A DNA stretch of 56,648 nt from a virus (taxonomy: Duplodnaviria > Caudoviricetes): the IMG/VR virus record IMGVR_UViG_3300038678_000070, positions 1-56,648 of that record; one strand, 5' to 3'. Shown here piece by piece: positions 28,820-51,897 of the stretch; the first letter of the stretch is position 1, and every line of letters begins with the position of its first letter. A program made the position numbers and the translations under genes. The notes below the pieces were generated by a model, which saw only the letters and a program-made list of their open reading frames with translations, was not told the DNA's origin and searched no databases.

Positions 28820-28867
28820 TGTCTCCTCCCGGTGAAGTGAAAACCGTCTCTAATCCTAACAAACAAG

Positions 28868-28940
28868 AGCCGCAGGGAGGAATCGAACCCCCGACATACT
28901 GCTTACAAGGCAGTTGCTCTTCCAACTGAGCTACAACGGC
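28868..28940 (-). tRNA. tRNA-Thr(UGU), no encoded CCA
   Basis: GCCGTTG acceptor (one U-U mismatch), GCTC-AGTTGGAA-GAGC D arm, ACTGC-CTTGTAA-GCAGT anticodon arm, GGGGG-TTCGATT-CCTCC T arm. Confidence 0.92.
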
Positions 28941-30110: not shown

Positions 30111-30569
30111 CTAACTTTTTGCTCCTGCACGCATTTTTCCGAGTACCAAGGTACTGATGTGCGATTGCACAACCCCATATAAACTAGCAAGAGCCTTCTG
30201 CGTAACACCGCCAGCGGAGTACCGGGAGCGAATCTCTAATACTTGGCGATCGGACAGTTTTGCATACCCGTGGTTCTCCCCGCGCAATATAACTGTCCTT
30301 CCTTTGTTATCACGGTCCCGGTTGTTGTCTGCTCTTGTGCCAATAAATAGATGCTCTGGATTAACACATCTTCTGTTATCGCATTTATGCAGAACACACA
30401 TATCTTTTGGGATGGGACCGTTGGCCATTTCCCAGGATATTCTATGAGATGAGCTAACACCTCCATGCCAGAAAATATGACCATACCCTGAAGAGTCACG
30501 GGCGGCGATCCACTCCCAGCAATCGCCGCTCATGTCAACCTTGAGCCAGAACCGTAAAGCGTCACTCAT
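30111..30569 (-). CDS. HNH endonuclease with C-terminal HTH
   Basis: CWEW...SHRISW...VLHKCDNRRCVNPEHLFIGT..DN; TQKALASLYGV. Confidence 0.92.
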   Translation of the reverse strand: MSDALRFWLKVDMSGDCWEWIAARDSSGYGHIFWHGGVSSSHRISWEMANGPIPKDMCVLHKCDNRRCVNPEHLFIGTRADNNRDRDNKGRTVILRGENHGYAKLSDRQVLEIRSRYSAGGVTQKALASLYGVVQSHISTLVLGKMRAGAKS

Positions 30570-30870: not shown

Positions 30871-31038
30871 TTATTCCTTTTCTTTTGGCAGTCTATAGCG
30901 AACCGCACCCACCGCATCTTTCCATCGCTCTACGTCTTCTAACCATATCCAGAAATGCCCACCAGTATTTGCATAGTAATTCGTGCACATTACCGGATAC
31001 CATGCAAACCATATATGCGTTTCGCTCCAACTTCTCAT
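30871..31038 (-). CDS. Small phage protein (MRSWSETHIWFAWYPV...WIWLEDVER, 55 aa)
   Basis: Translated by hand; WFAWxPV...WLExV pattern; ATG overlaps upstream stop. Confidence 0.65.
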   Translation of the reverse strand: MRSWSETHIWFAWYPVMCTNYYANTGGHFWIWLEDVERWKDAVGAVRYRLPKEKE

Positions 31039-31268
31039 CACTTCTCCTTTTCTTTCCAGTGGATACAGCCGAAGTCAGGCAAACGATTTTCGTGCAACTT
31101 TTCACAGTAAATATAACCCGCTCCGTATGGACCGGCACGCCGACAATCCCCGCAAGTGCCGATCAGGGTTTTGCCCATGCGTTTTATGATTTCTCGTATC
31201 TCAACATCCTGTCCTTGACAATTCTCGTCTCCGCAAATTGGGCATTCCCCTTCAAAATAATTCATCAC
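31038..31268 (-). CDS. Cys-rich GKTLIGTC-family protein (copy 1)
   Basis: CPIC...GKTLIGTCGDCR...C...FGCIHW. Confidence 0.7.
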   Translation of the reverse strand: MMNYFEGECPICGDENCQGQDVEIREIIKRMGKTLIGTCGDCRRAGPYGAGYIYCEKLHENRLPDFGCIHWKEKEK

Positions 31269-31282
31269 TCACTCCTATTTAA

Positions 31283-31465
31283 TAGGCTGGCCCCTTGTGT
31301 AGAGGGACCAGCCCCGTTACCAGCACTTTCGTCTCTTCGCTCGCGTTTCTATGAACATGCCCCTTAAGCCTTGCCGCGCAAGCGTGCCACACCGCACATT
31401 GCAGAGACGACGTGATTACCCAGTCTGTGCCTATGGACCCTGGGAGAAGGATTGGCAGGCAGGGC
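31283..31465 (-). ncRNA. Candidate structured non-coding RNA (element B)
   Basis: GC-rich intergenic nested stems plus strong terminal hairpin. Confidence 0.45.
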
Positions 31466-32096: not shown

Positions 32097-32567
32097 TTAT
32101 CCCGTAAAATTAGTGTATGCAAATTCTCCGTGCAGCTTGACCGCGTATACATCGTAGCACTTAGCTGCATCGGATTCGGAGTCAAAGAATCCTAGGAATA
32201 TTAGTTTCTTGTTAAACTGTATCTGCGCAACCCATTTGCCTGCGGCTGCACGAAAAGACACGCCCTTGTATTTTGAGGATGACGTTTTCCTTGCCCCGCA
32301 ATTCAACATATTTTCAGCATGAGTGACAGATCTTAAATTAGATCTACGATTGTCTAATCCATTGCGGTTCACATGGTCCGTAACCAAATGGTCTGGCGGC
32401 TCTAGGATCTTACGGTGCATAAAAACTGATTGCCGTCTCCCATCCGGCTGCATTATATTGCTTCTAGCATAGCCTAAGGCGTAATGCCAATTCCATTGAC
32501 TAAGCCAGGCATAATCGTCATCATCAACTAAAGCGACTTTTCCTTGGCTTAGCTTAATTTCTTTCAT
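32097..32567 (-). CDS. HNH-AP2 homing endonuclease (copy 2)
   Basis: LSQGKVALVDD; TDHVNRNGLDNRRSNLR; SSKYKGV; HGEFA. Confidence 0.92.
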   Translation of the reverse strand: MKEIKLSQGKVALVDDDDYAWLSQWNWHYALGYARSNIMQPDGRRQSVFMHRKILEPPDHLVTDHVNRNGLDNRRSNLRSVTHAENMLNCGARKTSSSKYKGVSFRAAAGKWVAQIQFNKKLIFLGFFDSESDAAKCYDVYAVKLHGEFAYTNFTG

Positions 32568-35206: not shown

Positions 35207-35689
35207 TTATTTACCTCCAAGGTTGAAAACGGCGAACTCGCCGTGCAGATGATACGCCGCAACGTCATAAGTTTCAGCGGCGTCACGCTCACTGTCAAAG
35301 AGGCCTAAGTTTAAATGCGTTGCTCCAGCTTTAATCCTGGCCCTCCATTTCCTTTTCTGCTTAGACCAATCTACGCCCTTATACATCGAGGTTGCAATTT
35401 TATTGCCGCCGCGGTTAAACCCGTTCTGGCTGTTGGTCACTGTTCGCAGGTTATCAACCCTATTATCTAGCTTGTCTCCGTTAATATGGTCGGTATATTT
35501 TCCCTTGCCAGTACGGTTAATTTCTCTGTGCATATAAAGCATCACCCCATACGGTTTACTGGCGTCCTCATAAGAGCGACGCATGGCATATCCGCAACCA
35601 CTATAATGCCACTTCCACTGCGCCAGATTGTGGTATTCGTCGTCATCAACTAGTGCTACTTTTCCTTGGGTTAATTGAATTTCTTTCAT
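35207..35689 (-). CDS. HNH-AP2 homing endonuclease (copy 3)
   Basis: LTQGKVALVDD; TDHINGDKLDNRVDNLR; YKGV; HGEFA. Confidence 0.92.
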   Translation of the reverse strand: MKEIQLTQGKVALVDDDEYHNLAQWKWHYSGCGYAMRRSYEDASKPYGVMLYMHREINRTGKGKYTDHINGDKLDNRVDNLRTVTNSQNGFNRGGNKIATSMYKGVDWSKQKRKWRARIKAGATHLNLGLFDSERDAAETYDVAAYHLHGEFAVFNLGGK

Positions 35690-37344
35690 TGGTCTAAATA
35701 CCTCCCAGTTTTATATTCAAAGTCTAATTTCACCATACCGTGCTTGCCAACTTCAGGCTGACATTTTATTTTTTGTACATGGACATGCACTTCAGGGCTG
35801 TAAAGATCGTCCATATCACGCCAAACACAAATAATACAATCCGCGCTATTATACCAGAAGCTAGACCCGCTGATATCGAACGGTTGTGGCACAGGTTGCT
35901 TCGCACCGGGCCTTTCCTTGCGTAGTTTTGTCGGGTGAGCAACAACCCAAATATGAATATTATGCTTTGTGGCAAACCGAACAATCTTTCCTAACATACG
36001 TCCTGTGTACTGATGTTCTGTCATCCCGTGATCAACCACATGGTCGCAAGCCCCCCAAGGGTCGAACACAAACCCATTCAATCCATGCCTAGCAACTAGT
36101 TTCTCAGCATAATTCAAGAGGGACATGATATCCATCTTATCTTCCGAAGGAGTGATAAAAAAGAAATGGTCCCTCACCCACTGCATTTCTGGTATTAATT
36201 CTGAGTCAGGGAGTCTGTCTGGCAAACCAAGCCTGACAGACTTGCCAGAATGCAAGCCGACGAAATTACGAACATGGCGAGCGGGTGGCCTTGTCTCTGG
36301 CGAGAACAAGGCGAATTTCCAATCTTCACCAGTAGCTAAGTTCACAAGCAAAGCGTCAAGGAACGTACTTTTCCCATGAGAAGGTATTCCGCAAAGTATA
36401 GTCAACTCGCCAAGTTTTACCGTATAATTTTCATCCAAGGAGTACCACCCTGTGCTTGCCCCTGGCGGCAGACCATTATGGAATATATCAACAACCTCGT
36501 CTGCAAAGTCGTCAACCGTTGACACCCCCTCCATAGGGGGCCATTTCGCGGTGTCAACAGCAACACGCAACCCTTCGACCCCGTATTTCATTAGGCACGC
36601 GTTCGCATCTTTGATCCCTTCAGGCCATGTTAATACCTTACATAGATCGGCAGGGAGCAACCGGAGTAGCGTCTCTTTGAGCTTCTCTCCAGCTTCGTCA
36701 TTGTCCAGCGCGAGTACATGGCAAGACGCATCTTTCCATTTGGTGCTGTCGGATAGAAATTCCAGCTTATCACTAGCCCCATTCGGGACGGATACACAGC
36801 TTTTGAAACCGGCAACTTCGAGTGAGAGCGCATCAATCTCACCCTCCGTCCAGAATAAAGGCTCTCCTGCAATAATGTCGTCATATTTGTATAGGGTCTT
36901 CTCAGCTTCCTTGACCATCTTGAAGTTTTTATTACCATCACGAAACTTTATATTAACGATTTCCCCGTCTTTGCAATAAGGGAACCTGATTGCGTTGACC
37001 GTCTCGCCCAACTGGGGCATGTGTTCAGGGCCATCAGTGATCTTGTTGCGGGCTAGCACTTCTCCGGTAATCCCGCGACCGGCAAACCAAGCCCTCGCTT
37101 TGTCTGATAGGCCATCGACCACTGAATATTTAGGCTTGACAATGCGTTTGATTTTTTCGTCGTAGTTCAAACCCAGGGAACCGGCGAACGAGCAATTGTG
37201 GCAATTCCATAGCCCTTGCTCTACGTTCACGCTTAAGCAGGCGTCCCTGCTGTTCCTGCGGGACGCAGAGCATTCAGGACAGGTCGTCTTAAACGAACCT
37301 GTCCGCCCCTCGACGTTTATGCCGACGTCTTGGAATGACTTCAC
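35686..37344 (-). CDS. Primase-helicase (T7 gp4/Twinkle-like)
   Basis: CPEC...CHNC zinc finger; TOPRIM EGEIDALS and LDNDEAG; Walker A GIPSHGKS; VVAHPTK. Confidence 0.93.
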   Translation of the reverse strand: MKSFQDVGINVEGRTGSFKTTCPECSASRRNSRDACLSVNVEQGLWNCHNCSFAGSLGLNYDEKIKRIVKPKYSVVDGLSDKARAWFAGRGITGEVLARNKITDGPEHMPQLGETVNAIRFPYCKDGEIVNIKFRDGNKNFKMVKEAEKTLYKYDDIIAGEPLFWTEGEIDALSLEVAGFKSCVSVPNGASDKLEFLSDSTKWKDASCHVLALDNDEAGEKLKETLLRLLPADLCKVLTWPEGIKDANACLMKYGVEGLRVAVDTAKWPPMEGVSTVDDFADEVVDIFHNGLPPGASTGWYSLDENYTVKLGELTILCGIPSHGKSTFLDALLVNLATGEDWKFALFSPETRPPARHVRNFVGLHSGKSVRLGLPDRLPDSELIPEMQWVRDHFFFITPSEDKMDIMSLLNYAEKLVARHGLNGFVFDPWGACDHVVDHGMTEHQYTGRMLGKIVRFATKHNIHIWVVAHPTKLRKERPGAKQPVPQPFDISGSSFWYNSADCIICVWRDMDDLYSPEVHVHVQKIKCQPEVGKHGMVKLDFEYKTGRYLDQ

Positions 37345-37745
37345 GTTTCAAGTAATTCAGGGGACTCGTAAATATTGCCGATTACTTCAAATGAATCAAT
37401 CAAGTGATTGTGAAATAGTGTTTTCCCGGCCTGATTCTTCGTTGCAAATCCCCCAAACTCTTCAACAAAAACAACCTCGCCCTCGTGCGGCAGAATATCG
37501 TTTTGAGTGATCATTTTGCATTTAACAACGTCGCCTTCAAAAATCTCCTTACCGTTCTTGTCTTTCAGGCCGGTGAATTGCATTAAGATTGCCTGAATCC
37601 CGTGATCCAGTTCTGCATCTTCAACAGAGTTCAAGAATTCCGCTAAAGACCTATCTTCCATCATTGACATTATTTGAGAGTCAAAAGTCTTATGCTTGCC
37701 ATTAATAAACCAAGCGCGGAGTTTGATAGCCCTAGAATTGCTCAT
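37341..37745 (-). CDS. YopX-family protein
   Basis: IKLRAW; MQFTGLKDKNGKEIFEGDVV; EVIGNIYESPELL. Confidence 0.9.
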   Translation of the reverse strand: MSNSRAIKLRAWFINGKHKTFDSQIMSMMEDRSLAEFLNSVEDAELDHGIQAILMQFTGLKDKNGKEIFEGDVVKCKMITQNDILPHEGEVVFVEEFGGFATKNQAGKTLFHNHLIDSFEVIGNIYESPELLET

Positions 37746-37930
37746 TGTTCCCCCTCCGGTAAGTACGGCGGTTGTTTAGAGGTTTCATAGCACCCCGCCG
37801 CGATTAGTTCGTCTTCCAGCATCATTTGATTAGCGGTTGCTCTGCACTCTTTCAATGTCCCATCAAATACCTTCTGCGTGCTACCCAGTGTGTCGAGAGA
37901 CAACACCCAAAGGATTATTAAGATTTTCAT
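37742..37930 (-). CDS. Small exported hypothetical protein
   Basis: Hydrophobic N-terminus, two Cys; ATGA coupling at 37927-37930. Confidence 0.6.
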   Translation of the reverse strand: MKILIILWVLSLDTLGSTQKVFDGTLKECRATANQMMLEDELIAAGCYETSKQPPYLPEGEQ

Positions 37931-38175
37931 TTGAAAATAGCCCAAGCGACAACCGATAACATTGCAAAGAAAGAGAAATAAGCAAAAGATTCAGGCCAAG
38001 TCATTGAGTCGCTCCATTGGTTTTCGAGGTTTGGCGCTTTGAGGTTTAGCGCAAAGTGCCTTCACGCGAAGCCCAAGGCTGTCAACGTGAAGATTAAGCT
38101 CCAGGTTGGTCATGGTCTTGATCGTTCTCACTGCTTTCTTTGGCTTGAAGAACATTATAGCCTCCTTCTTGCTGG

Positions 38176-38844
38176 TTAAAATACCCTCGTCATTTTATAC
38201 CCTTCCGTCTTCTTTAAATAATCAGGACAAGGGCTATTAAACCTTACAGTCACAAGCAAAGGAATTTTTTTATCTTGTAGCACCTTGAAATGTGTCCGTA
38301 TTGCTCGTTTTCTCTCTTTGAGCATTCTTTTCATCAACCCCCTGTAGTCATTTGTTGATATTGATAACAATGGCCCCTGTTCCATGATGAATAAGTCTTT
38401 AGAATGTGATTCGATGGAATATTGGCCATCTAGCATAGTCTCAAAGACAAATACCGCCCCCACACAGAGTTGCAAAAGGTACTGCTCTTCCGCAAGAAAA
38501 GATTGAACGTACTTTGTAAGCGAGATTGCCTGCTCATGCGTCAATGGTTCCCCATCCAATTTCGGAGAACCAAACGCAGGCATGGCTGTTCCTGGCACTC
38601 CATGTAAAATTGTGTGCACAATCGCATGAGTATCCCCGGAAAGATGCCGCATCTTGTTATAGTCTGTAAAGTCTCGCGGCTTTGGATTCAAATGCTCCGC
38701 TAAAACGCCTTGCCCATCACCATAAACTCCGTGGCAGGTCATACAACGCTCTTGGTACAAACGACCTACTTGGGAATCATCGGCCAGCACTACTTCAGCC
38801 ATAAAAAATGATAAACAAGCTAAAAGTAATAATTTAATTTTCAC
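38176..38844 (-). CDS. Secreted class I c-type cytochrome with C-terminal extension
   Basis: Signal peptide; CMTCH heme motif; G.G.G, PKPRDFT; GVPGTAMPAF with distal Met. Confidence 0.9.
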   Translation of the reverse strand: MKIKLLLLACLSFFMAEVVLADDSQVGRLYQERCMTCHGVYGDGQGVLAEHLNPKPRDFTDYNKMRHLSGDTHAIVHTILHGVPGTAMPAFGSPKLDGEPLTHEQAISLTKYVQSFLAEEQYLLQLCVGAVFVFETMLDGQYSIESHSKDLFIMEQGPLLSISTNDYRGLMKRMLKERKRAIRTHFKVLQDKKIPLLVTVRFNSPCPDYLKKTEGYKMTRVF

Positions 38845-39041
38845 TTATTATTCTCCTTTTCTTCCCAGTGGATACAGCCGAAATGCTCCCTAGTGGTTAA
38901 TTCGCTGGTTTCAATTATATCGCACTCCATACAATTCCCGAATTGATCCCCTTTGATCTCTTCCCAATGCCGACAATCCCCGCAAGTGCCGATCAAGGTT
39001 TTGCCTCTCACTGAAAAAGCCTTTTGGTGCCGGGAGGTCAT
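38841..39041 (-). CDS. Cys-rich GKTLIGTC-family protein (copy 2)
   Basis: GKTLIGTCGDCR...C...FGCIHW. Confidence 0.7.
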   Translation of the reverse strand: MTSRHQKAFSVRGKTLIGTCGDCRHWEEIKGDQFGNCMECDIIETSELTTREHFGCIHWEEKENNK

Positions 39042-39207
39042 TCATGCCACCTCAAAGAATAAGTTAATGCAGTTACATAAAATTCTGAATATCCTGCCAT
39101 TATTAAACGATAGATGAACGTAGCATTGCTCGCTTCATATCTTGATATCACCCTTCTACCTCCGTTCACTGGGAAACATGAAGGTTCATGCTTCGCGTTT
39201 AAGTTTA

Positions 39208-39366
39208 GAACGTGGCCGGATTCCCCACCCGGCTCCGAGTACCCATGCTACTCCGACATCTCTGGTACAGGCAGTTACTGCTTTCAAAACGGGATTAGCT
39301 AGTTCCCTGTTCAGCGCTTCCCTCTAATCCCGGTATGAGCTACAGTCGCGCTCACGCCGCACGTCC
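39208..39366 (-). ncRNA. tRNA-like structured RNA (element A)
   Basis: 7-bp GGACGTG/CACGTTC closing stem adjacent to a GCCGG/CCGGC T-arm-like hairpin; internal stems GGGATTAG/CTAATCCC and GTACC/GGTAC. Confidence 0.55.
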
Positions 39367-39390
39367 ATAATATTTAGTTCAGGTCGGGTC

Positions 39391-39864
39391 TTAAAAATTC
39401 GTCCAAGCGAATTCACCAAAATACCGTCCCGCCGCTTCGTCGTAAGCGCGTGCCGCTTCAATTTCAGTTTTGTAATAACCAATGTGTTGGGTTTTATTTT
39501 TTTCAGTGTTTACTTGGACACGCCACAATTCCCGCTTCCACGCCTTGCATACTCCCTTGTATTTAGAGGTTGATCGTTTTGTGAGTTTCTTCGGTGAATT
39601 CATCTGGTTTTGAGAGTTAGTACAATTTCTTAAATTGGGTTTCTGGCAATCAAGCCTATCCCCATTTATGTGATCTGTCTGCATTCCCTTTGGCGTTTTA
39701 TTAACAATCCGGTGGATATAAATTGTTTTTATTTTTCCGGCTATACGTTCATTTCTAGCGGCATAACCATCAGAAACTAATTTCCAATTAAATTCATTCA
39801 AAAACTCGAAATCCCCATCGTCAACTAATGCAAACTTTCCTTGGGTTAATGGTATTTTTTTCAT
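39391..39864 (-). CDS. HNH-AP2 homing endonuclease (copy 4)
   Basis: LTQGKFALVDD; TDHINGDRLD; SKYKGV; EAARAYD..A..YFGEFA. Confidence 0.9.
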   Translation of the reverse strand: MKKIPLTQGKFALVDDGDFEFLNEFNWKLVSDGYAARNERIAGKIKTIYIHRIVNKTPKGMQTDHINGDRLDCQKPNLRNCTNSQNQMNSPKKLTKRSTSKYKGVCKAWKRELWRVQVNTEKNKTQHIGYYKTEIEAARAYDEAAGRYFGEFAWTNF

Positions 39865-39887
39865 AATTGACCTTATTGATTAAATGA

Positions 39888-40022
39888 AACCGGCTGTGAT
39901 TGGTGCGCATCCCTCGCGTCACCGCTTTTCCGCATGATCCTGTCCTGCGGCTAAGGGGCCAACCACACCGCCTTGCCATAGCACCTTATACTGCGATGGT
40001 ATTCAAGGTCGGTTGCCGGGTT
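39888..40022 (-). ncRNA. Three-way-junction structured RNA (element C)
   Basis: CCGGC-A-ACCG...CGGT-GTGGTTGG...CCAATCAC-A-GCCGG; core shared with 41866-42011. Confidence 0.6.
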
Positions 40023-40031
40023 TTAAAAGTT

Positions 40032-40310
40032 TCATAGATTGCGTAACTCTTTGTCCCAGTCTGAATTTTTCGGCAAGCTATCAGATGTTTCAGGTTTCCA
40101 TGTCAACGGCTTCCACCGATCAGCCCCTATGTCTGCCAGAGGGGTTGTCCATTTTATAAAGCTATCAGTAACCACAACCCATTCACCTGATATGGAACTT
40201 TTCAGCCTACACACGACCCAAACGCTGGGAATCCATTGGTACTCATGCTTGCAATAAAGAATATAGTGCCAACCAAACAGATAGTGGGCTAGCTTTTGGA
40301 ATATGCTCAT
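40032..40310 (-). CDS. Hypothetical protein
   Basis: AGGAGG RBS. Confidence 0.6.
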   Translation of the reverse strand: MSIFQKLAHYLFGWHYILYCKHEYQWIPSVWVVCRLKSSISGEWVVVTDSFIKWTTPLADIGADRWKPLTWKPETSDSLPKNSDWDKELRNL

Positions 40311-40347
40311 GATTCAATCCTCCTTTCACACTTTAGAAGGGTATTCA

Positions 40348-41205
40348 TCAGAACGGTATATCCGGCACATCTCCGTGGTCAGACTGGTCGCCGCCACCGT
40401 GAGGCCACTCCTTTTCAACATACGTGCATACCCTCTCATAATCTTTCCAGCCCAAGCCATCAATCCCATCCACCTTGTAATGTTCTTTCAGGTGAGCGTT
40501 CAAGTCTTCGATGGCGACTCCGGCGCCCATCGTAATAGCGTACAGGCGCTTGCCTTGTGCTTTGCTGATCGGGGTGCCACGGTCGCCCATGCCAGGGTGT
40601 TTATTCGGAGCAGACTTGGTGTATGTTTTCTTTGGCTGTTGAGTCGGAGCGTGGGCTTCTCTTTGAGAGAATTCCTGCCCACCAACCACTTCCTTGGCGA
40701 CCTTCATAACGTCACGCTCAGGGATTGCATCGCTACTCTCGCCAGTAACATATTTGTTACTATCCCATTGGCTACAAAAAACATCAGCTCCCGCCCCTAT
40801 GAAGCTGGCGGCCTTAGTAATTGCGTCCGTCAACGATTTCTTCGGGGCGTCCTCGTCAGTTACCCAGCCTCGGACTGCCTCTTTCCTGGTGAAGTACGTT
40901 TGCCCGTAGGCGGGGATTTCTTCTGACTTTACATCATTCTCTATGTACCAAAGGCCAATGCGAACAACATGAAGGATGGTCTTGTTGCCCTCGTCTCCAT
41001 GCCCGACATGGTAGCCCTCATCATGGACATTGTACCCCCACCCAATACCGCAAGGACCGAAACGCTCGGTCAGACTGTGGATAGTATAATACGCATTGAT
41101 AGCTGTCATAGCGTATCCCTTCCCGGTCACATCTTTCAATGCTTTAGGGTCAGTAGTTTTTAGCGCATTCCATATTTCTAAATTATCTGGTTTCTCTTCT
41201 TTCAA
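40348..41205 (-). CDS. Putative single-strand annealing protein (Rad52/Sak-like)
   Basis: LTERFGPCGIGWG; DEDAPKKSLTDAITKAAS; acidic DIPF C-terminus; probable TTG start after AGGAG. Confidence 0.7.
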   Translation of the reverse strand: MKEEKPDNLEIWNALKTTDPKALKDVTGKGYAMTAINAYYTIHSLTERFGPCGIGWGYNVHDEGYHVGHGDEGNKTILHVVRIGLWYIENDVKSEEIPAYGQTYFTRKEAVRGWVTDEDAPKKSLTDAITKAASFIGAGADVFCSQWDSNKYVTGESSDAIPERDVMKVAKEVVGGQEFSQREAHAPTQQPKKTYTKSAPNKHPGMGDRGTPISKAQGKRLYAITMGAGVAIEDLNAHLKEHYKVDGIDGLGWKDYERVCTYVEKEWPHGGGDQSDHGDVPDIPF

Positions 41206-41269
41206 AACTGTTCTCCTTTGGTTTTTATTTACCTGGAAGCGATTACATCGCAACAGGCTAGTTTAAATT

Positions 41270-41740
41270 TTAGATCCGGGATTCTTCGTCAAACCGCTCC
41301 CAGCATTTAGATTTATCCTTAAAATGCTTGCAATCTGAGAAAGCTCCACATCCCGCACACTCATCCCAATTTGGTTTTTTATCGTAATCAGCGGATTGAT
41401 ACCACCAAGCTGGACAGGTGAATTTCCTGTTCTCACTCTTTTTAGGAAAGTTCTGTCCTTCATCCCAAAGTTCATAGGGCATGCCCCCAAAGTCCTTGAG
41501 AATATATCCGTTGCCTGTGCCGATTGTCATTCCAGGGTTAGCCTTATAAACTCGCTTGACCCCGGATTTCGCTTTTCTTTTCAAGAAATCATTGTATTTA
41601 TGAACCCGATGAACTTTCCCCGTTCCGTTGCAATGAAAACAGACGACAGCAGCTCCATCACGCTCACCAAGACCAATGTAAAGTCCTGTCGCTTTGCATG
41701 AAGTGCATTCGCAGTCATATTCAATTATAATATGCTCCAT
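41270..41740 (-). CDS. CxxCxxxG zinc-finger hypothetical protein
   Basis: CTSCKATG...CFHCNGTG plus C-terminal Cys cluster. Confidence 0.7.
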   Translation of the reverse strand: MEHIIIEYDCECTSCKATGLYIGLGERDGAAVVCFHCNGTGKVHRVHKYNDFLKRKAKSGVKRVYKANPGMTIGTGNGYILKDFGGMPYELWDEGQNFPKKSENRKFTCPAWWYQSADYDKKPNWDECAGCGAFSDCKHFKDKSKCWERFDEESRI

Positions 41741-41768
41741 CTCATCTCCTTTGTATTTTAAATTTTTA

Positions 41769-41857
41769 AGCACCTCTAGGCCCGGCAGGTTTCGTCGCCA
41801 GAGTTCCGTCTGCCGTCACAATGAGGCCAGTCTCGCGTTGGCTGGCCTAAAGGTGCT
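41769..41857 (-). ncRNA. Candidate structured RNA (element E)
   Basis: 14-bp AGCACCTTTAGGCC/GGCCTAGAGGTGCT stem enclosing CGGCAG/CTGCCG. Confidence 0.45.
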
Positions 41858-41865
41858 CATTTATC

Positions 41866-42011
41866 CCCGACTGTGGCTGTCGTACGCCCCGAATTTATAA
41901 GCGAACTCGTTTAGACGTTAGGCCGTCTTTCGGGACAGCCACACCGCTAAGTGGATGCTTTTTTATACCCCAGCATAACCTGTAGGGGGCATTTTAAGCG
42001 GTTGCCGGGTT
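41866..42011 (-). ncRNA. Three-way-junction structured RNA (element D)
   Basis: CCCGGC-A-ACCGCT...AGCGGT-GTGGCTGTC...GACAGCCAC-A-GTCGGG. Confidence 0.6.
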
Positions 42012-42017
42012 GGATTG

Positions 42018-42215
42018 TTAGTAGCCAGGATACTTGCGTTCCCGTCTAAATTGTCTCCTTCCAATCGGCTGGAAGTAGCCGTCACTCTCCCCTGGCTTCA
42101 GTTCGATGTGATGAGGTTTGTTGACAAAGTGAACCCGGCAAGATCCGGGCACACGGGATGGGGTTTTATCTCCCGGCTTAATCTTTAATTCCCATGTTTC
42201 AAAGCTATCCACCAT
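42018..42215 (-). CDS. Hypothetical protein
   Basis: ORF track. Confidence 0.5.
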   Translation of the reverse strand: MVDSFETWELKIKPGDKTPSRVPGSCRVHFVNKPHHIELKPGESDGYFQPIGRRQFRRERKYPGY

Positions 42216-42372
42216 CGTTATCCGCCAACAGCCCTTCGGCTTCTAGTCTGTTATCGTTTATAGCGTCTAACCATTCCTTGTATTCTTCCTCCCATTTCTC
42301 CTGACATGATTCGCTACAGAACAAGTCGTTCTCTTTAGGCATTTCCGCTTGGCAATTATGGCATTGGTTCAT
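42205..42372 (-). CDS. Small Zn-ribbon protein (MNQCHNC...FCSESC, 55 aa)
   Basis: Translated by hand; CxxC...FCSxxC. Confidence 0.55.
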   Translation of the reverse strand: MNQCHNCQAEMPKENDLFCSESCQEKWEEEYKEWLDAINDNRLEAEGLLADNDGG

Positions 42373-42595
42373 TTTCAACATCCTCCTCGATTAATTCATA
42401 GGTAACTTTGTACTGGGCAATGCGGTACTTTTCTGTGTCTTCAAAGATCCCATGGCAATTGGCGTGTCTGGCCTCTGATGCCGAATCAAAATCGTACTCA
42501 TTGCAGTAAGCCCGACTGTAACTCCCAACTGCCATGCCGGTTGCCCTATCTATTATCCTAAAAACAGTGGAAGGTTTTTTCTCTGCTGGTTTCAT
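42356..42595 (-). CDS. Hypothetical protein
   Basis: Start moved to MKPAEKK after AGGAG. Confidence 0.6.
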   Translation of the reverse strand: MKPAEKKPSTVFRIIDRATGMAVGSYSRAYCNEYDFDSASEARHANCHGIFEDTEKYRIAQYKVTYELIEEDVENEPMP

Positions 42596-42658
42596 TCTAA
42601 ACGCTCCTTTTAATACCGCATACTTATAAAATAGCAGATGAGACTGGTTTGTCAAATT

Positions 42659-42994
42659 TTAAATAGAATTAACCTGTTGCAATAGCAGCTCCTCTTCGTG
42701 GGTCAATAGTTCAGGGAAATTATCCGCAAGGTTTGCGAGGCGTTTAGACCCTTGGACGTCCCATATCTTCCTAACAATATCGTCTATAGTGAGTGATGAG
42801 CTTTGCTCTGGAGATAGCTTTTCTTGCATTATTGCTTGAGCTACCACCCACTCAATGAAGCTGGAAACAGTTCTTCTTTGTCTCCGTGAAGCCAGTTCAA
42901 GTGCAAACCTCAGCTTTGGATCAAATCGTACCGTCACCACTTCAGAGCGTGATAATTTACCTCCGCCATGCTTTGTGTCTGTTGTATGTTTCAT
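42659..42994 (-). CDS. Ribbon-helix-helix-like DNA-binding protein
   Basis: VVTVRFDPKLRFALELASRRQRRTVSSFIEW. Confidence 0.7.
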   Translation of the reverse strand: MKHTTDTKHGGGKLSRSEVVTVRFDPKLRFALELASRRQRRTVSSFIEWVVAQAIMQEKLSPEQSSSLTIDDIVRKIWDVQGSKRLANLADNFPELLTHEEELLLQQVNSI

Positions 42995-44560
42995 ATAGAA
43001 TTAACCCATTTTATAAAAAGTTTATCGTCTTTCAGGTGAGCCAAGTCTTTTTTGGCGAGCTCTGACAGCGTTGGGGCTTCGACCTTTTCGAGCTTGCCGT
43101 GTTTATTGTAGGTGCGGCACTCAAAGAGTTGCTTGACGTGTGCCCCTGTCCTGATCTGGAAGTCTTCGCCCTCGTATATTTGTTTTAGTTGTGTGTAGTT
43201 CATGAGGATTCCCTCAGTTTGATTCTGCCTCGAATGTCGCATTCTAGCCCAATGAGTTGAGCTTGGTGTGAGCGGGTTAGCTCTCCACTAAGGGCGATAT
43301 TTAAGATATATTTTTTACTGCCTGATTCATCCCTGCCAACCAACCACATACCGGGTGGGTCGCCAGCCTCTAGCCAAAACTCGATAACGGGGTTACGGGT
43401 TTCTTTTTCTTCAGTTGCTGGGTTGTTTAAAATAATTGCTTTCATGATTCAGTCTCCTTTGATTTAGGTTCGCTAGTAACTCTTTCAATTTCTTCCCAAT
43501 ACCCCGGGTCTTTCAGGTATTTTACAAACGCGGCGACCTCCATAGGAAAGCCCATGCTTAACGCCATAAGCTCGTCATTGTCGGCGAGGGACATAGCTTC
43601 AAACAGTGCGTTTGTGAATGGTCCATATTGATAGGTTTGCCATGAATAAATAAATGCTTGCTCCGCATCCAGCCCCCACCTGTCCATTGCCCCCTTGTAG
43701 TATGGTGTCATTGTTCAGTTCCTTGCTTTGATTCGGCAATCATGTAATCTGCCCACTCGTAGCACTCTCTGACATCTACTGCTGTTGCAGGCTTGCCCGC
43801 CCGAGCCTGCATTGCCAAACCAGCCAGCCAGTTACGGCGGGTGATGCCATTTCTAGCTTCAGGCCAAGCATCTTCAAAAGGGTGCTTGGTCATTTCAAAA
43901 CTTGGCGGATATACATATCCACCTTCATCAATTTTATTAGTCATTGTTTCCCCTGTCTTAAGGTTTAGTTTTTCCCGGCAAGGCGTTCATTAAATTCACG
44001 CCCTGACCGGGGCAGTTGCTTTGCTAGCCGTGCCATTGCCATGAGTTGCAAGTCAGGAACAGCGCCCCTGTGTTGTTCAAGGTATGCTTTCATGACATCG
44101 ACAACACCGTGCCAGTCGAATATAGTCAAGCCGATGGTGAGCGTTTCTATTGGCCTGAATGGTGAGTTTTTCATAGGGTGTTATCCTTTTAAAATTGTTT
44201 CAGAATAGTAAGTTCCTGAATCCACGTCCAAGGTCAAGCCCAGATCACCCGCTTCCTCTTTGGTCCCGTAAATATCGGAAAAAACTTCCCTGACAACCAC
44301 AATCTGTCCGGGCTGGAGATTTTCGGCGCTGTTTCCTTCAGGCGTAATGTATATTATTATGGCTTTCACGATTCCTTCTCCTCTAGGTTAAAGAAGGCCG
44401 GGTCACTGTGTTTATAATACGCGCCTCCTGTTACTGTCGATTCAGTCGTGGTGGCATGTATAAATTTACTTCCGATTGTCTTCCGAATAGCTTCTTCAAT
44501 CGTATCGGCTTCGTTAACAACTACTTCTTGTAGTTTTCGTGTAATGATCCATTTTTTCAT
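42991..44560 (-). other. Cluster of seven short, coupled early-region hypothetical CDSs
   Basis: ORFs 42991-43203, 43200-43445, 43442-43711, 43708-43944, 43965-44174, 44181-44369, 44366-44560; mostly ATGA/GTGA overlaps. Confidence 0.65.
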
Positions 44561-44573
44561 TGTCTTCTCCTTT

Positions 44574-45053
44574 TTAGGTTGCTACGTTGTTGTCTGTGAT
44601 AATGATAGTCCCTATATCGTCCCATTCTTCACCGCGCCAATCTACTGACCCATTTAGCTTATAGCCAGATGGGGCAAGGAAGTTCTTGATAATATACTCA
44701 AGCCATTCCACGTAGGCGTAGAATTTTTCGCATCCATTCCACTCGATTCCTTCCCCGTCTTCAGTCGGAACCCATTGACACCATAGTCCCGGTTGGGTGG
44801 TTGGAGGAGTGTTGTAATCAACAATGTCTGATGAGCGAGTTTGCCCGCAAATGCCTCCAGCGTCCACATAAAATTCCCCTTCAACTTCAGTTCGCAAGGT
44901 TTCTTGACTCCATACCGTTTTCCTGTCTAGTATTTTTGCCGTGTCTCTCTTCATTCTTCTTGAGTCGGAGAATTTATTGAGGTAGTCGATGTGGTCTTGG
45001 CTAAGGGCTGGGGTTACTTGAAATGATCCTCTAAAGTCTGTTGTATATCCCAC
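44574..45053 (-). CDS. Conserved phage hypothetical protein (MGYTTDF...QPGLWCQW...EKFY)
   Basis: Probable GTG start after GAGGA; motif-rich sequence. Confidence 0.7.
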   Translation of the reverse strand: MGYTTDFRGSFQVTPALSQDHIDYLNKFSDSRRMKRDTAKILDRKTVWSQETLRTEVEGEFYVDAGGICGQTRSSDIVDYNTPPTTQPGLWCQWVPTEDGEGIEWNGCEKFYAYVEWLEYIIKNFLAPSGYKLNGSVDWRGEEWDDIGTIIITDNNVAT

Positions 45054-46015: not shown

Positions 46016-46179
46016 TGCCTTGTCCTCCTATAATGTCATGAATAAAATGATTGTGATTATCAGCGTGGCGACCAGCACCAAGCAAGCTATGATGTTTTGG
46101 AATGTTTCCATTGTCTTGATCCTCTTGGTTAGTTAGTATTTTGCATGGTTTTTAGTCTAAATTTCATGCAAAGGTTTGG

Positions 46180-46912: not shown

Positions 46913-46988
46913 TGTCTTGATCCTCTTTAGGGTTAGTTCCTTAATACTCTACTTGTCGGAGCGTGGCTCCTTCCCAGTTAACCTAACA

Positions 46989-47017
46989 AGTATACTATGT
47001 TTAGTCAATCCTTTCAA
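46989..47017 (-). promoter_or_regulatory. Sigma70-type early promoter
   Basis: TTGAAA-17-TATACT. Confidence 0.6.
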
Positions 47018-47306
47018 GGTATTCGTAAAGATATAGGGATTTATTTTCAGTCGAATTTACGAGTGCCCTTCTGACTACGATTAAACTGTAAACCCCGTCA
47101 ACTTTTGGCAGGCTGATAATTAGTTCATGCCCTTTTCGTGGCATTTTTTCAGCTAGTCTATAGTTGGTGTTTAATATTTCATTGACTTGATCTTTAGTGT
47201 AAAGGTTATAAAAACCTGATTTGTATAATCCTGATTTTAGGAAGCTATTCGCCTCCTTGATTATTTGCGGATTTATTTGTTGTTCGACTGGAGTGTTAAT
47301 TTTCAT
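47001..47306 (-). CDS. Early hypothetical protein
   Basis: ORF track; AGGATAAGACA leader. Confidence 0.65.
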   Translation of the reverse strand: MKINTPVEQQINPQIIKEANSFLKSGLYKSGFYNLYTKDQVNEILNTNYRLAEKMPRKGHELIISLPKVDGVYSLIVVRRALVNSTENKSLYLYEYLERID

Positions 47307-47336
47307 TGTCTTATCCTATTTGTTGGTTAGTAGTTA

Positions 47337-47528
47337 TTACATAGTTACTGAAATATACTTTCGGGTTTTGATGTTCTTAAAGTAATCCCTGTCATCCTTA
47401 CTGTACATATACATCCAGCTTCCAGCATAGTTATAATCTTCTGACTTATCCGGGTCAGAGTGAAAGGTTCCTTTATGAATTGCGTTATCAAATGCCCATT
47501 GTTCAAGGTTGACGTGGTAGCTTGTCAT
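47337..47528 (-). CDS. First early hypothetical protein
   Basis: AGAGGACAAGACA leader; just downstream of promoter. Confidence 0.65.
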   Translation of the reverse strand: MTSYHVNLEQWAFDNAIHKGTFHSDPDKSEDYNYAGSWMYMYSKDDRDYFKNIKTRKYISVTM

Positions 47529-47577
47529 TGTCTTGTCCTCTTTAGTTTGGTTTGCTTTCGCTCCTTAACACTCTACA

Positions 47578-47605
47578 AGTATACTATCCTTTACGGCAGA
47601 GTCAA
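47578..47605 (-). promoter_or_regulatory. Leftward sigma70-type promoter
   Basis: TTGACT-16-TATACT at the strand switch. Confidence 0.7.
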
Positions 47606-47664
47606 TAGGTTTAATGTCACAATTGTGTCACAGTTAGATTAAAATATTTTAATGTTGAAAGGTA

Positions 47665-47693
47665 TTGACAAGGCGTGTAGATTGCATTACATT
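47665..47693 (+). promoter_or_regulatory. Rightward sigma70-type promoter
   Basis: TTGACA-17-TACATT. Confidence 0.7.
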
Positions 47694-47697
47694 ATTA

Positions 47698-47797
47698 GGT
47701 GAGAGTCAGAGTCGAAAGAATCTAAGATAGTTTAATGGCATCCACTGGTTTATAGGGCTTCGACTCCCTGACTCGCCAGTGGGTGTCATTTTTTTTG
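47698..47797 (+). terminator. Attenuator-like leader with terminator
   Basis: ATGGCATCCACTGG/CCAGTGGGTGTCAT followed by a T run; loop complementary to upstream GAGTCAGAGTCGAA. Confidence 0.55.
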
Positions 47798-47884
47798 AGG
47801 TTAAGTTATGAGTGAAACTACAATGGTTGCTTTGGGGTTTGCGCTTGGCGTTGTAATAGGGTTTGTTGGCATATTGGTGGCGTT

Positions 47885-48097
47885 ATGAGATTAAAGCATT
47901 GCAACGGCAAGATAAAGAAGGGTGGCAAGATTCACGAGGTATCGGAGTTTGCCGGGTATAAGGAAACGAAGTGCGGGATCAGGTTTGACGGGATTATATT
48001 CTCCCCTGGCAAGCTGGACTCTGAAAAAGTTTCTTGCAAGAATTGCTTTAGTTTGATATGGTCTACGAATAGCTTGGAAAAGTCACATATCTTTTAG
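47885..48097 (+). CDS. Hypothetical protein
   Basis: ORF track; H...CG...CKNC. Confidence 0.55.
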   Translation: MRLKHCNGKIKKGGKIHEVSEFAGYKETKCGIRFDGIIFSPGKLDSEKVSCKNCFSLIWSTNSLEKSHIF

Positions 48098-48099
48098 CA

Positions 48100-48800
48100 G
48101 GATATCCACCCGTTGAGACTTTAAGGCCGTAAGGCCGGAACCGTCAATGGTAAGGGATAAGGGATTGCCGGGTAACTCTGTACGCGCCAGTCAACCGCCA
48201 ATCAGTTCAGATAGACACATTGCCGGGTGTCATATCTTTTTTTATTCGCCCGGTCTATAAAGGGCGTGTTGTATCTAAAATCAGTGGAGCGTTAGCGTAA
48301 CTGACACCTTTGAAGCTTTCCGCTTTGCCTGTCGGCAGCGTCAAGCGTAAGCCGACTGAAGAAAGGCAACTCTAAAGGAAAGCGTATTAGGGTGTGATTA
48401 ACAGAATACAAAAGATAATGAACATGAGCAACTATCCTCTTGGCGAGGAAGTTGCCTCAATCAGTTAGTAGTCGTTTAAACATATAGATTTATATGCAAA
48501 TGTGTTGTTAAGGTATATGGTTAAGACTATTAGAATCATTCTCAAAATCATATCCACAGTGTCTCCCTGAATGTTTCACACGATGTTTCACAGAGCATTG
48601 GAAGTGTTCAACTCATTACCTTCGGCAATTCATTGAACTAAGAACTTAAGGTATGTTTGTATTAATGTTTGAGTATAGATTTGTAGGTGAGATTGGATGT
48701 AAAAAATGTGTATATGGGAGGGGGGGGGGGCTGGGATTGAGGTACCCCTGTAAGTTTGAGTCCAAACCCCGCATGTCATTTCTAATAAAAACCATATAAT
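48100..48800. other. Large non-coding region, candidate replication origin / control locus
   Basis: Hairpins, AT-rich tract, DnaA-box-like nonamers, G-run; no credible ORF. Confidence 0.5.
48209..48243 (+). terminator. Rho-independent terminator
   Basis: AGATA-GACAC...GTGTC-A-TATCT followed by a T run. Confidence 0.55.
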
Positions 48801-48813
48801 ACTTCTAAACAAC

Positions 48814-48841
48814 TTGACAACGGCTGATGATGTGGTATACT
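48814..48841 (+). promoter_or_regulatory. Sigma70-type promoter
   Basis: TTGACA-16-TATACT with extended TG. Confidence 0.7.
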
Positions 48842-48848
48842 AGTATAT

Positions 48849-51233: not shown

Positions 51234-51418
51234 TCTATTCTATGTCCTTCAGTTAAAAATTTCGGCTCAACCCAATCGTAATAAGGGGAAGACTCGCCGC
51301 ACCAGTGGCAAACGTAGTAATACAAATAATGTCCGTAAGCATCTTCTTCGTTCTTAATTCTCTCAATGACGCCGTTCTTGCCGTTCACGTTATTGTAAAC
51401 TTTAGCTCCGATAATCAT
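51230..51418 (-). CDS. Hypothetical protein
   Basis: ORF track; ATGA coupling. Confidence 0.6.
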   Translation of the reverse strand: MIIGAKVYNNVNGKNGVIERIKNEEDAYGHYLYYYVCHWCGESSPYYDWVEPKFLTEGHRIE

Positions 51419-51897
51419 TCTTCTACCTCGTTTAGGTTAGCGTATTCGCCAAAATATCGCTTCGCCATGACGTTATAAGCCAGACCAGCTCCCTCCTCTG
51501 TGAAGAACCACTTGATCAACGCTTTTTCTCCTTTTTTGCGAAGCTGGGCACACCATCTCCGCTTGCCAGCCGCCTTGTAGGTCACACCCTTGTATTTTGA
51601 TAGATTGCCATCAGATCGTTTCTTTTGATTTATGCAATTCTGAGATCTAGTCGCAACCCGCAGATTGCCTCGCCTGTTGTCCAGCTTATCTCGGTTGATG
51701 TGGTCTGTGTCGACCCCCTCTTCAGGGTTTAATACGGCACGGTGCATGTATATTTTACCTTGCTTCCCGTTGTCCTTCCGAAAATTTCTCAACGCGTACC
51801 CTTGATGGTGATAGTACCATTGATGCTTTGATAATTCATCAAAATCTTCATCGTCCACCAAAGCAAATTTACCCCTACTTAATTCTATTTTTTTCAT
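51415..51897 (-). CDS. HNH-AP2 homing endonuclease (copy 5)
   Basis: LSRGKFALVDD; TDHINRDKLDNRRGNLR; SKYKGV; YFGEYA. Confidence 0.92.
   Translation of the reverse strand: MKKIELSRGKFALVDDEDFDELSKHQWYYHHQGYALRNFRKDNGKQGKIYMHRAVLNPEEGVDTDHINRDKLDNRRGNLRVATRSQNCINQKKRSDGNLSKYKGVTYKAAGKRRWCAQLRKKGEKALIKWFFTEEGAGLAYNVMAKRYFGEYANLNEVEE

Follow-up and report, generated by a model that had tools for sequence, protein, structure and literature searches.

Two intergenic stretches in the genome of an uncultivated phage share the core of an RNA-like three-way junction. The genome is the complete IMG/VR virus record IMGVR_UViG_3300038678_000070 (56,648 bp, including direct terminal repeats of 127 bp), which we analyzed at its full length and refer to below as the window. 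The stretches, named element C (39888-40022) and element D (41867-42011), both lie on the minus strand. They are copies of a real, lineage-specific, two-copy structured element, and a previously uncatalogued example of a structured intergenic phage RNA motif. To judge from their folding and orientation, they most likely act as sense-strand RNA within a leftward operon of tightly packed genes.

The shared junction core

Each element is marked by three short boxes, read here on the minus strand. The 13-nucleotide (nt) 5' box AACCCGGCAACCG has exactly two exact copies in the window (40010-40022 and 41999-42011); the third match listed has two mismatches and lies inside a coding open reading frame (ORF). 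The 9-nt middle box GCGGTGTGG is exact at 39963-39971 in C and at 41939-41947 in D, and occurs again at 31387-31395, an unrelated site without the other boxes. The 9-nt 3' box, CACAGYCGG, reads CACAGCCGG in C (39890-39898) and CACAGTCGG in D (41867-41875), with the one change at Y. Between the two elements, 31 of 32 box positions are identical, and a fuzzy three-box search of the window found intact boxes in C and D only. The shared 13-mer by itself is unremarkable in 56 kb. Three collinear, mutually complementary boxes that close into a three-way cycle are not a product of chance.

The boxes complement each other in a closed, nested cycle that runs P1, A, P2, P3, A, P1'. P1 is CCGGC/GYCGG, P2 is ACCG/CGGT, and P3 is of the type GTGG.../...CCAC, with the strands GTGGTTGG/CCAATCAC in C and GTGGCTGT(C)/(G)ACAGCCAC in D. 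P2 joins P3 without a linker, and one unpaired A stands on each side of P1; these two junction A residues are the only unpaired core nucleotides that the elements share. In element D, P1 is formed by 42008-42004 (plus 42009) and 41871-41867 (plus 41866), P2 by 42002-41999 and 41946-41943, and P3 by 41942-41934 and 41881-41873, with the junction A residues at 42003 and 41872. In element C the corresponding strands are 40019-40015 and 39894-39890 for P1, 40013-40010 and 39970-39967 for P2, and 39966-39959 and 39903-39896 for P3; the A residues are at 40014 and 39895, and TTTCATTT comes next after the 3' strand of P1.

All 17 core pairs are formed in C and all 17 in D (MAFFT alignment A1). Two P3 pairs are changed on both sides (U-A to C-G and G-C to U-A), one pair in P1 and one in P3 are changed on one side only (G-C against G-U), and every helix difference between the elements thus preserves pairing. 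Outside the boxes, MAFFT gave no meaningful alignment of the arms. The initial annotation, made from the sequence alone, had described the common 5' box, middle box and CACAG(C/T)CGG end, the P1/A/P2/P3/A helices, differences that keep the pairing, and a three-way junction with a constant core and variable arms; each of these descriptions held when it was checked. The guanine-plus-cytosine (GC) content of the elements is 0.53-0.58, compared with about 0.44-0.49 in the surrounding kilobases.

Unconstrained minimum free energy (MFE) folding recovered the same junction in both elements on the minus strand. The MFE is -53.2 kcal/mol for C (z -2.18, reached by 5 of 200 shuffles) and -55.6 kcal/mol for D (z -3.55, 1 of 200). 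In the folds, the P2 arm is one long irregular hairpin and the P3 arm opens into two hairpins. Core pair probabilities are 0.72-1.0 when 0-100 nt of flanking sequence are included. With 200-nt flanks, P1 and P3 of element C fall to 0.14 and 0.39, respectively, and the core pairs of element D stay at or above 0.78; the junction of D is also retained when the entire 277-nt gap around it is folded. A candidate loop-loop pairing of 5 bp between the P2 and P3 arms, found in both copies, was rejected: the positions are not equivalent and its frequency is at chance level.

The minus-strand structures contain G-U pairs (2 of 44 pairs in one element and 3 of 44 in the other), and because of these the mirrored plus-strand structures are weaker, by 4.6 and 6.6 kcal/mol. 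Together with the sense orientation of the elements, this favors an RNA of the minus strand, although only modestly.

Known RNA families and further copies

A search of the whole window against Rfam 15 at the gathering threshold returned a single match, a transfer RNA (tRNA) at 28868-28940. Lax scans (E ≤ 10) of 39700-42200, 28000-48900, 39875-40035 and 41745-42025, and of 39000-39420 for the gap behind an HNH endonuclease gene, gave only weak matches to unrelated families, with E above 1 and scores far under gathering, and no intron, ribozyme or phage RNA. Among these were SOX2OT_exon3 over element C on the plus strand (7.9 bits, where gathering requires 70; E 1.2) and mir-203, also on the plus strand (12.6 bits, where 65 is required; E 4.3), which reaches into a second structured domain, D2, beside element D. 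The family thus remains as unrecognized as the initial annotation had found it, with no Rfam 15 match to C or D at either threshold.

Several known classes were considered and are not supported. A tRNA- or transfer-messenger-RNA-like origin is not indicated: ARAGORN reported only the tRNA-Thr at 28867-28940, in agreement with Rfam. The self-cleaving ribozyme classes in Rfam gave no model match, and the shared unpaired core nucleotides are the two junction A residues. No Intron_gpI match at E ≤ 10 was found in 28000-48900, 39875-40035 or 39000-39420 that would place a group I intron around the HNH ORF beside element C. In a check for split exons, which covered homologs of one neighboring gene product, a 156-amino-acid (aa) protein, its homolog at a metagenome locus (L404) is a separate ORF with the same N-terminus. 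The 349-nt gap behind the HNH gene (39042-39390, minus strand) has a z of -0.16 and contains neither a long ORF nor an Rfam match, and may once have been coding sequence that has since decayed.

We built a covariance model (R1) from the cores of C and D and ran it on the window without filters. The two elements scored 159 and 148 bits, and no other match in the 56.6-kb genome exceeded 10 bits. The other intergenic regions of the minus-strand gene block bear no resemblance to C or D, and a blastn search of INPHARED phages with 39300-42400 gave no match.

Larger collections were scanned with patterns that covered C/D-like cores within set ranges of arm length, other arm lengths and diverged cores falling outside this coverage. 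With the 5' and middle boxes, 19 stretches were found in IMG/VR; judged by eye, with the 3' box and reading frames not computed, they are chance matches in GC-rich sequence. Only one of the 19 (L007) recurred under the three-box pattern, and it forms 3 of 6 P1 pairs. A relaxed three-box scan of IMG/VR gave 76 stretches; the four outside the window with at least five of six P1 pairs are all within open frames, and none of them folds into the junction. When a shorter P3 arm was allowed, 88 stretches were found; among 95 matches, which include loci from the other scans, six have at least five of six P1 pairs, all in open frames. The three-box scan of JGI and other metagenome contigs returned 62 stretches, none with five of five P1 pairs and the best four in open frames. 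In GTDB genome contigs (one genome per species), 79 stretches were found, again none with five of five P1 pairs; of the five with at least four of five P1 pairs and a good P3, four fall in open frames, and L265, the fifth, is contained in an ORF. Across the four three-box scans, each match with a paired P1 is either in an open frame or without the junction fold. Seven of the metagenome contigs (L180, L184, L197, L206, L216, L234 and L238) share a sequence that looks non-coding, with stops in all frames near the site of the match. In these the pattern match is due to chance, with P1 unpaired, and the stretch itself is recurrent and conserved.

We also looked for elements at the loci of distant relatives. 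The 285-aa protein encoded between C and D has 58 relatives, the nearest of which, on a Logan/ENA contig, is 58% identical. Run on 80 IMG/VR loci of its relatives (at most 49% identity), R1 gave one 9-bit match with an E of 9, and a descriptor search over 102 sequences found nothing convincing. For the primase-helicase a single relative was found (38% identity), and R1 finds no element there. The single relative of the 156-aa protein is the one at L404, at 52% identity, a locus in which R1 likewise has no match. The phage lineage appears, from these sequence searches, to have almost no sequenced relatives. A DNA sequencing run of a marine sediment metagenome is the only run in which this phage was found, and is probably its source. 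The contigs of that run contain four short matching pieces: three are unrelated HNH look-alikes, and the fourth, of 34 nt (41825-41858), lies within D2. The comparison yielded no variants and no joints.

Genomic context

The plus strand of the phage genome carries structural and packaging genes, and a protein family search showed that the phage has a terminase large subunit. The minus strand carries a dense block of small genes that runs from about 47.5 kb down to 28.4 kb and encodes the primase-helicase (35686-37344), exonuclease-labeled proteins and HNH endonucleases (five genes). On a rough gene map, 24 of the 52 gene junctions in this block overlap or abut, 14 of them as 4-nt overlaps, and only eight gaps exceed 100 nt as called. 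One of the eight holds element D, and measures 244 nt from a called GTG start or 277 nt to the ATG. The gap holding element C is truly 167 nt and is understated in the gap list because a spurious ORF overlaps it.

Both elements follow a stop codon closely. Element D begins 6 nt after the TAA of a 65-aa ORF (42018-42215, minus strand) whose family is unassigned, with no PHROG or Pfam match. Element C begins 9 nt after the TGA of a 92-aa ORF (40032-40310, minus strand), which has no family assigned and no paralogy to the 65-aa ORF. The initial annotation had likewise placed the elements in intergenic gaps just after a stop codon; these gaps belong to a co-directional gene block. Downstream of C lies a homing-endonuclease gene with HNH_3 and AP2 domains (39391-39864, minus strand), which starts 25 nt past the 3' strand of P1 and is one of four paralogs with a common 5' end. 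Downstream of D lies the gene for the 156-aa protein, which is cysteine-rich (41270-41740, minus strand; AAGGAG Shine-Dalgarno sequence and ATG). Between the two elements, the 285-aa protein (40348-41205, minus strand) belongs to phrog_7838, labeled exonuclease (E 9e-50). Neither the two genes downstream of C and D nor the two ORFs upstream of them form a paralogous pair, so that the RNA core, and not a duplicated segment, is the conserved unit. The downstream genes of both elements have their own ribosome-binding site and ATG.

The second structured domain, D2 (41767-41859, minus strand), stands directly 3' of element D and ends 26 nt ahead of the start codon of the 156-aa gene. It consists of a 16-bp stem with a branched top (MFE -42.7, z -3.66, 0 of 200 shuffles as good), and element C has no counterpart to it. 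D2, for which no family match appeared, overlaps from about 41858 a possible 14-codon ORF that starts just after GGGGA. A U-rich stretch (5 U in 8 nt) comes after element C, and no U tract follows D. In a simple scan, neither element had a promoter-like site directly upstream. A promoter within the arms was considered and rejected: both P2 arms contain a TATAA-like unpaired stretch, with no -35 partner at a usable distance, and the scan placed no promoter-like site in them.

Other features of the genome were recorded along the way. The tRNA-Thr (TGT; 28867-28940, minus strand; 65.5 bits), found by both ARAGORN and Rfam (28868-28940), closes the minus-strand block. The five HNH endonuclease genes of the 56.6-kb genome, all on the minus strand, are at 30111-30569, 32097-32567, 35207-35689, 39391-39864 and 51415-51897; four of the five have a conserved 56-nt 5' end in common, with 70-84% identity to the reference copy. 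A 222-aa ORF (38176-38844, minus strand) passes the Pfam cut-offs for cytochrome c domains (Cytochrome_CBB3, E 1.5e-8; Cytochrom_C, E 4.1e-7) and has a hydrophobic N-terminus, and would be unusual as a phage auxiliary gene. Two small cysteine-rich ORFs (31038-31268 and 38841-39041, minus strand) are paralogs with 47% identity (E 5e-12). DNA segments of 37 nt and 32 nt are 97% identical between them, which suggests gene conversion, and ahead of the two ORFs lie long non-coding gaps, of about 200 nt and 349 nt, respectively. Several genes near the head of the minus-strand block are preceded by a repeat of 26-49 nt that ends in the Shine-Dalgarno-like AAAGAGGA...CAAGACA (46016-46179, 46913-47000 and 47529-48848); the repeat is probably a promoter or leader present in several copies. 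Within the genome, GC content is lowest in the kilobase 47001-48000 (0.379), and 47307-48848 contains no ORF of 75 aa or more.

Possible functions and known systems

The function that we tentatively put first, as a good possibility rather than a probability, is that of a cis-acting element of a polycistronic transcript, serving in processing, 3'-end protection or altered read-through. C and D would then be copies of one lineage-specific structured RNA module within a long leftward operon transcript. P1 would close the element, and the linker-free P2 and P3 could stack into one long quasi-continuous helix from which P1 exits sideways. The junction would offer a recognition site of shape plus sequence to a protein, either encoded by the phage or a host RNase or RNA polymerase. 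Acting in cis, it might flag where the upstream cistron ends, so that the transcript is processed or its 3' end protected there, or it might modify read-through into the next gene. The arms would have been replaced or have drifted beyond recognition, the identical nucleotides being those of the junction-proximal helices and not of the loops. We infer three things here: the action as RNA, the reading of the junction by a protein, and the downstream effect. The pairing preserved at all 17 core pairs, the junction folds obtained without constraint, the G-U pairs that favor the minus strand, the sense-strand position, the tight gene block, the U-rich stretch after C and the D2 hairpin after D are in keeping with a cis-acting element. 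Since the helices are conserved, the arms vary and only two unpaired residues are shared, recognition of the junction by a protein would fit better than a catalytic core or a ligand pocket.

Several observations weigh against this proposal. The plus strand folds nearly as well (z -2.46 and -1.87). The next start codon lies 25 nt away from C but 126 nt away from D. In 37600-44700, the simple scan found no canonical intrinsic terminator on the minus strand (none of nine terminator-like sites): C is branched and then has its 5 U in 8 nt, and D lacks a U tract. None of the phage proteins compared (28 different proteins against PHROGs, nine of them also against Pfam) belongs to an RNA-related family that would make it a candidate binding protein. 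At L404 no element lies upstream of the homolog of the 156-aa protein, whose gene follows the preceding ORF by only 50 nt; the element is therefore dispensable for this gene and is not its obligatory leader. The shuffle control on pair covariation gave 109 of 500 shuffles, and since there are only two sequences, which cannot reach significance, covariation statistics are powerless. No homologs of C or D were found in INPHARED, IMG/VR, JGI metagenomes, GTDB or the 82 loci of distant relatives. The initial annotation had proposed a new motif and had looked to Rfam and to homologs to decide the matter. The motif is still unrecognized, with no Rfam match; the absence of homologs with covariation from every collection searched is part of what the annotation had said would refute it. 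A claim of a new RNA family would, as the sequences stand, rest on two paralogous copies in one genome.

A different origin, which we consider rather unlikely, is that of a structured insertion, selfish or neutral: a small module, mobile or spread by recombination and similar to miniature inverted-repeat transposable elements (MITEs), repetitive extragenic palindromic (REP) sequences or GC clusters, that landed in two intergenic sites and has no dedicated function. P1 would provide its short terminal inverted repeats, and excision would leave a normal short gene junction. The unrelated genes around C and D, the relative at L404 without an element ahead of the homologous gene, the GC content of the elements above that of their surroundings, and the five HNH genes, one of which adjoins C, would all be compatible with such a module. 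Against it, the core alone is conserved and the arms are unalignable, which points to selection on the junction and not to recent transposition; no target-site duplication is seen in the flanks, and there are no further copies in this genome or in the collections searched. A MITE- or REP-like repeat in the strict sense was rejected, given two copies with unalignable arms, inverted termini that amount to a P1 of 5-6 bp, and no flank duplication.

We think it improbable that C and D are stable trans-acting small RNAs in which the junction is a scaffold and the variable arms are antisense sequences or guides against the host or the phage, as the initial annotation had suggested alongside two other putative roles, a processing site and a protein-binding scaffold. 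The constant core with fully variable arms would suit such RNAs, as would discrete units closed by P1, with C ending in a stem and a U-rich tail. However, the scans found neither a promoter-like site directly upstream nor a terminator-like site on the minus strand in 37600-44700, and the arms are mostly base-paired internally. The guide proposal fared poorly against the phage genome itself: for each of the four arms, the longest complement elsewhere in the window is 11 nt, which equals the level of shuffled arms (mean longest complement 10.3-10.9, maxima 12-14). A further reading, a new class of phage RNA in which the invariant, nearly linker-free junction docks a protein dedicated to it, from the phage or the host, while arms that can be exchanged carry copy-specific information (targets, timing or partner selection), seems to us doubtful on much the same scale. 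If it were true, C and D would represent a modular RNA system of constant junction and variable arms and not a simple processing hairpin.

It is very improbable that the junction works as single-stranded DNA, as a priming, helicase-loading or recombination signal for the primase-helicase or for annealing or exonuclease proteins. The junction is encoded in the DNA and could form on either strand, and the primase-helicase gene and exonuclease-labeled genes lie within a few kilobases of the elements. On the other hand, G-T wobbles weaken the DNA form and the complementary strand is less stable; both copies are in the orientation of transcription and directly past stop codons, neither of which a replication signal needs; and we know of no origin with this architecture. 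A new self-cleaving ribozyme or an intron remnant tied to the HNH gene is highly unlikely: ribozymes and introns are frequent beside phage homing-endonuclease genes, and the element is compact and present more than once, but no ribozyme or group I or II intron model matches even with lax filters on short stretches, the two conserved unpaired core nucleotides do not make up an evident active-site loop, each downstream gene comes with its own ribosome-binding site and ATG, and the gap behind the HNH gene shows no unusual degree of structure.

Should the junction prove to be a site for a protein or an RNase, a branched, sequence-defined punctuation signal would be added to the few known ways in which phages organize long polycistronic transcripts, and the element would also offer a compact natural three-way-junction scaffold with exchangeable arms. 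At present, C and D are a well-defined candidate whose value depends on homologs or transcripts.

Among known phage RNAs, the pRNA of phi29 resembles the elements in being phage-encoded, of similar size and built on a three-way junction. In contrast to it, C and D have no match in the Rfam 15 cmscan, lie in the replication/early block, and belong to a phage with a terminase large subunit. PMC10690425 describes predicted structured intergenic motifs in uncultivated phages, and in this respect its IMG/VR candidates are similar to ours. The pipeline of that paper retained only motifs with at least three unique IMG/VR regions and significant covariation, so that C and D, as two copies in one record, would probably not qualify for the catalogue.

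The put sites of HK022 and the nut sites of lambda have a similar arrangement, being short, structured intergenic RNAs, two per genome and conserved with respect to each other. These are cis-acting antitermination RNAs of phage early transcripts that are read by RNA polymerase or a protein. A put site consists of two adjacent hairpins without a closing stem, and a nut site of boxA and one hairpin; both are found just downstream of divergent early promoters. C and D, in contrast, are in the same orientation, 2 kb apart and several kilobases from the likely promoter region, and the resemblance appears to be one of position and copy number only. The RNase III sites of T7-like phages are likewise repeated structured intergenic elements that follow stop codons in polycistronic phage mRNA. 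They are unbranched hairpins with an internal loop, about ten per genome, and cleavage leaves a protective 3' hairpin. C and D differ from them in being branched three-way junctions in two copies, known here from sequence and folding. By analogy, our best reading is that C and D would work like the T7 RNase III sites or the put and nut sites, without belonging to those families.

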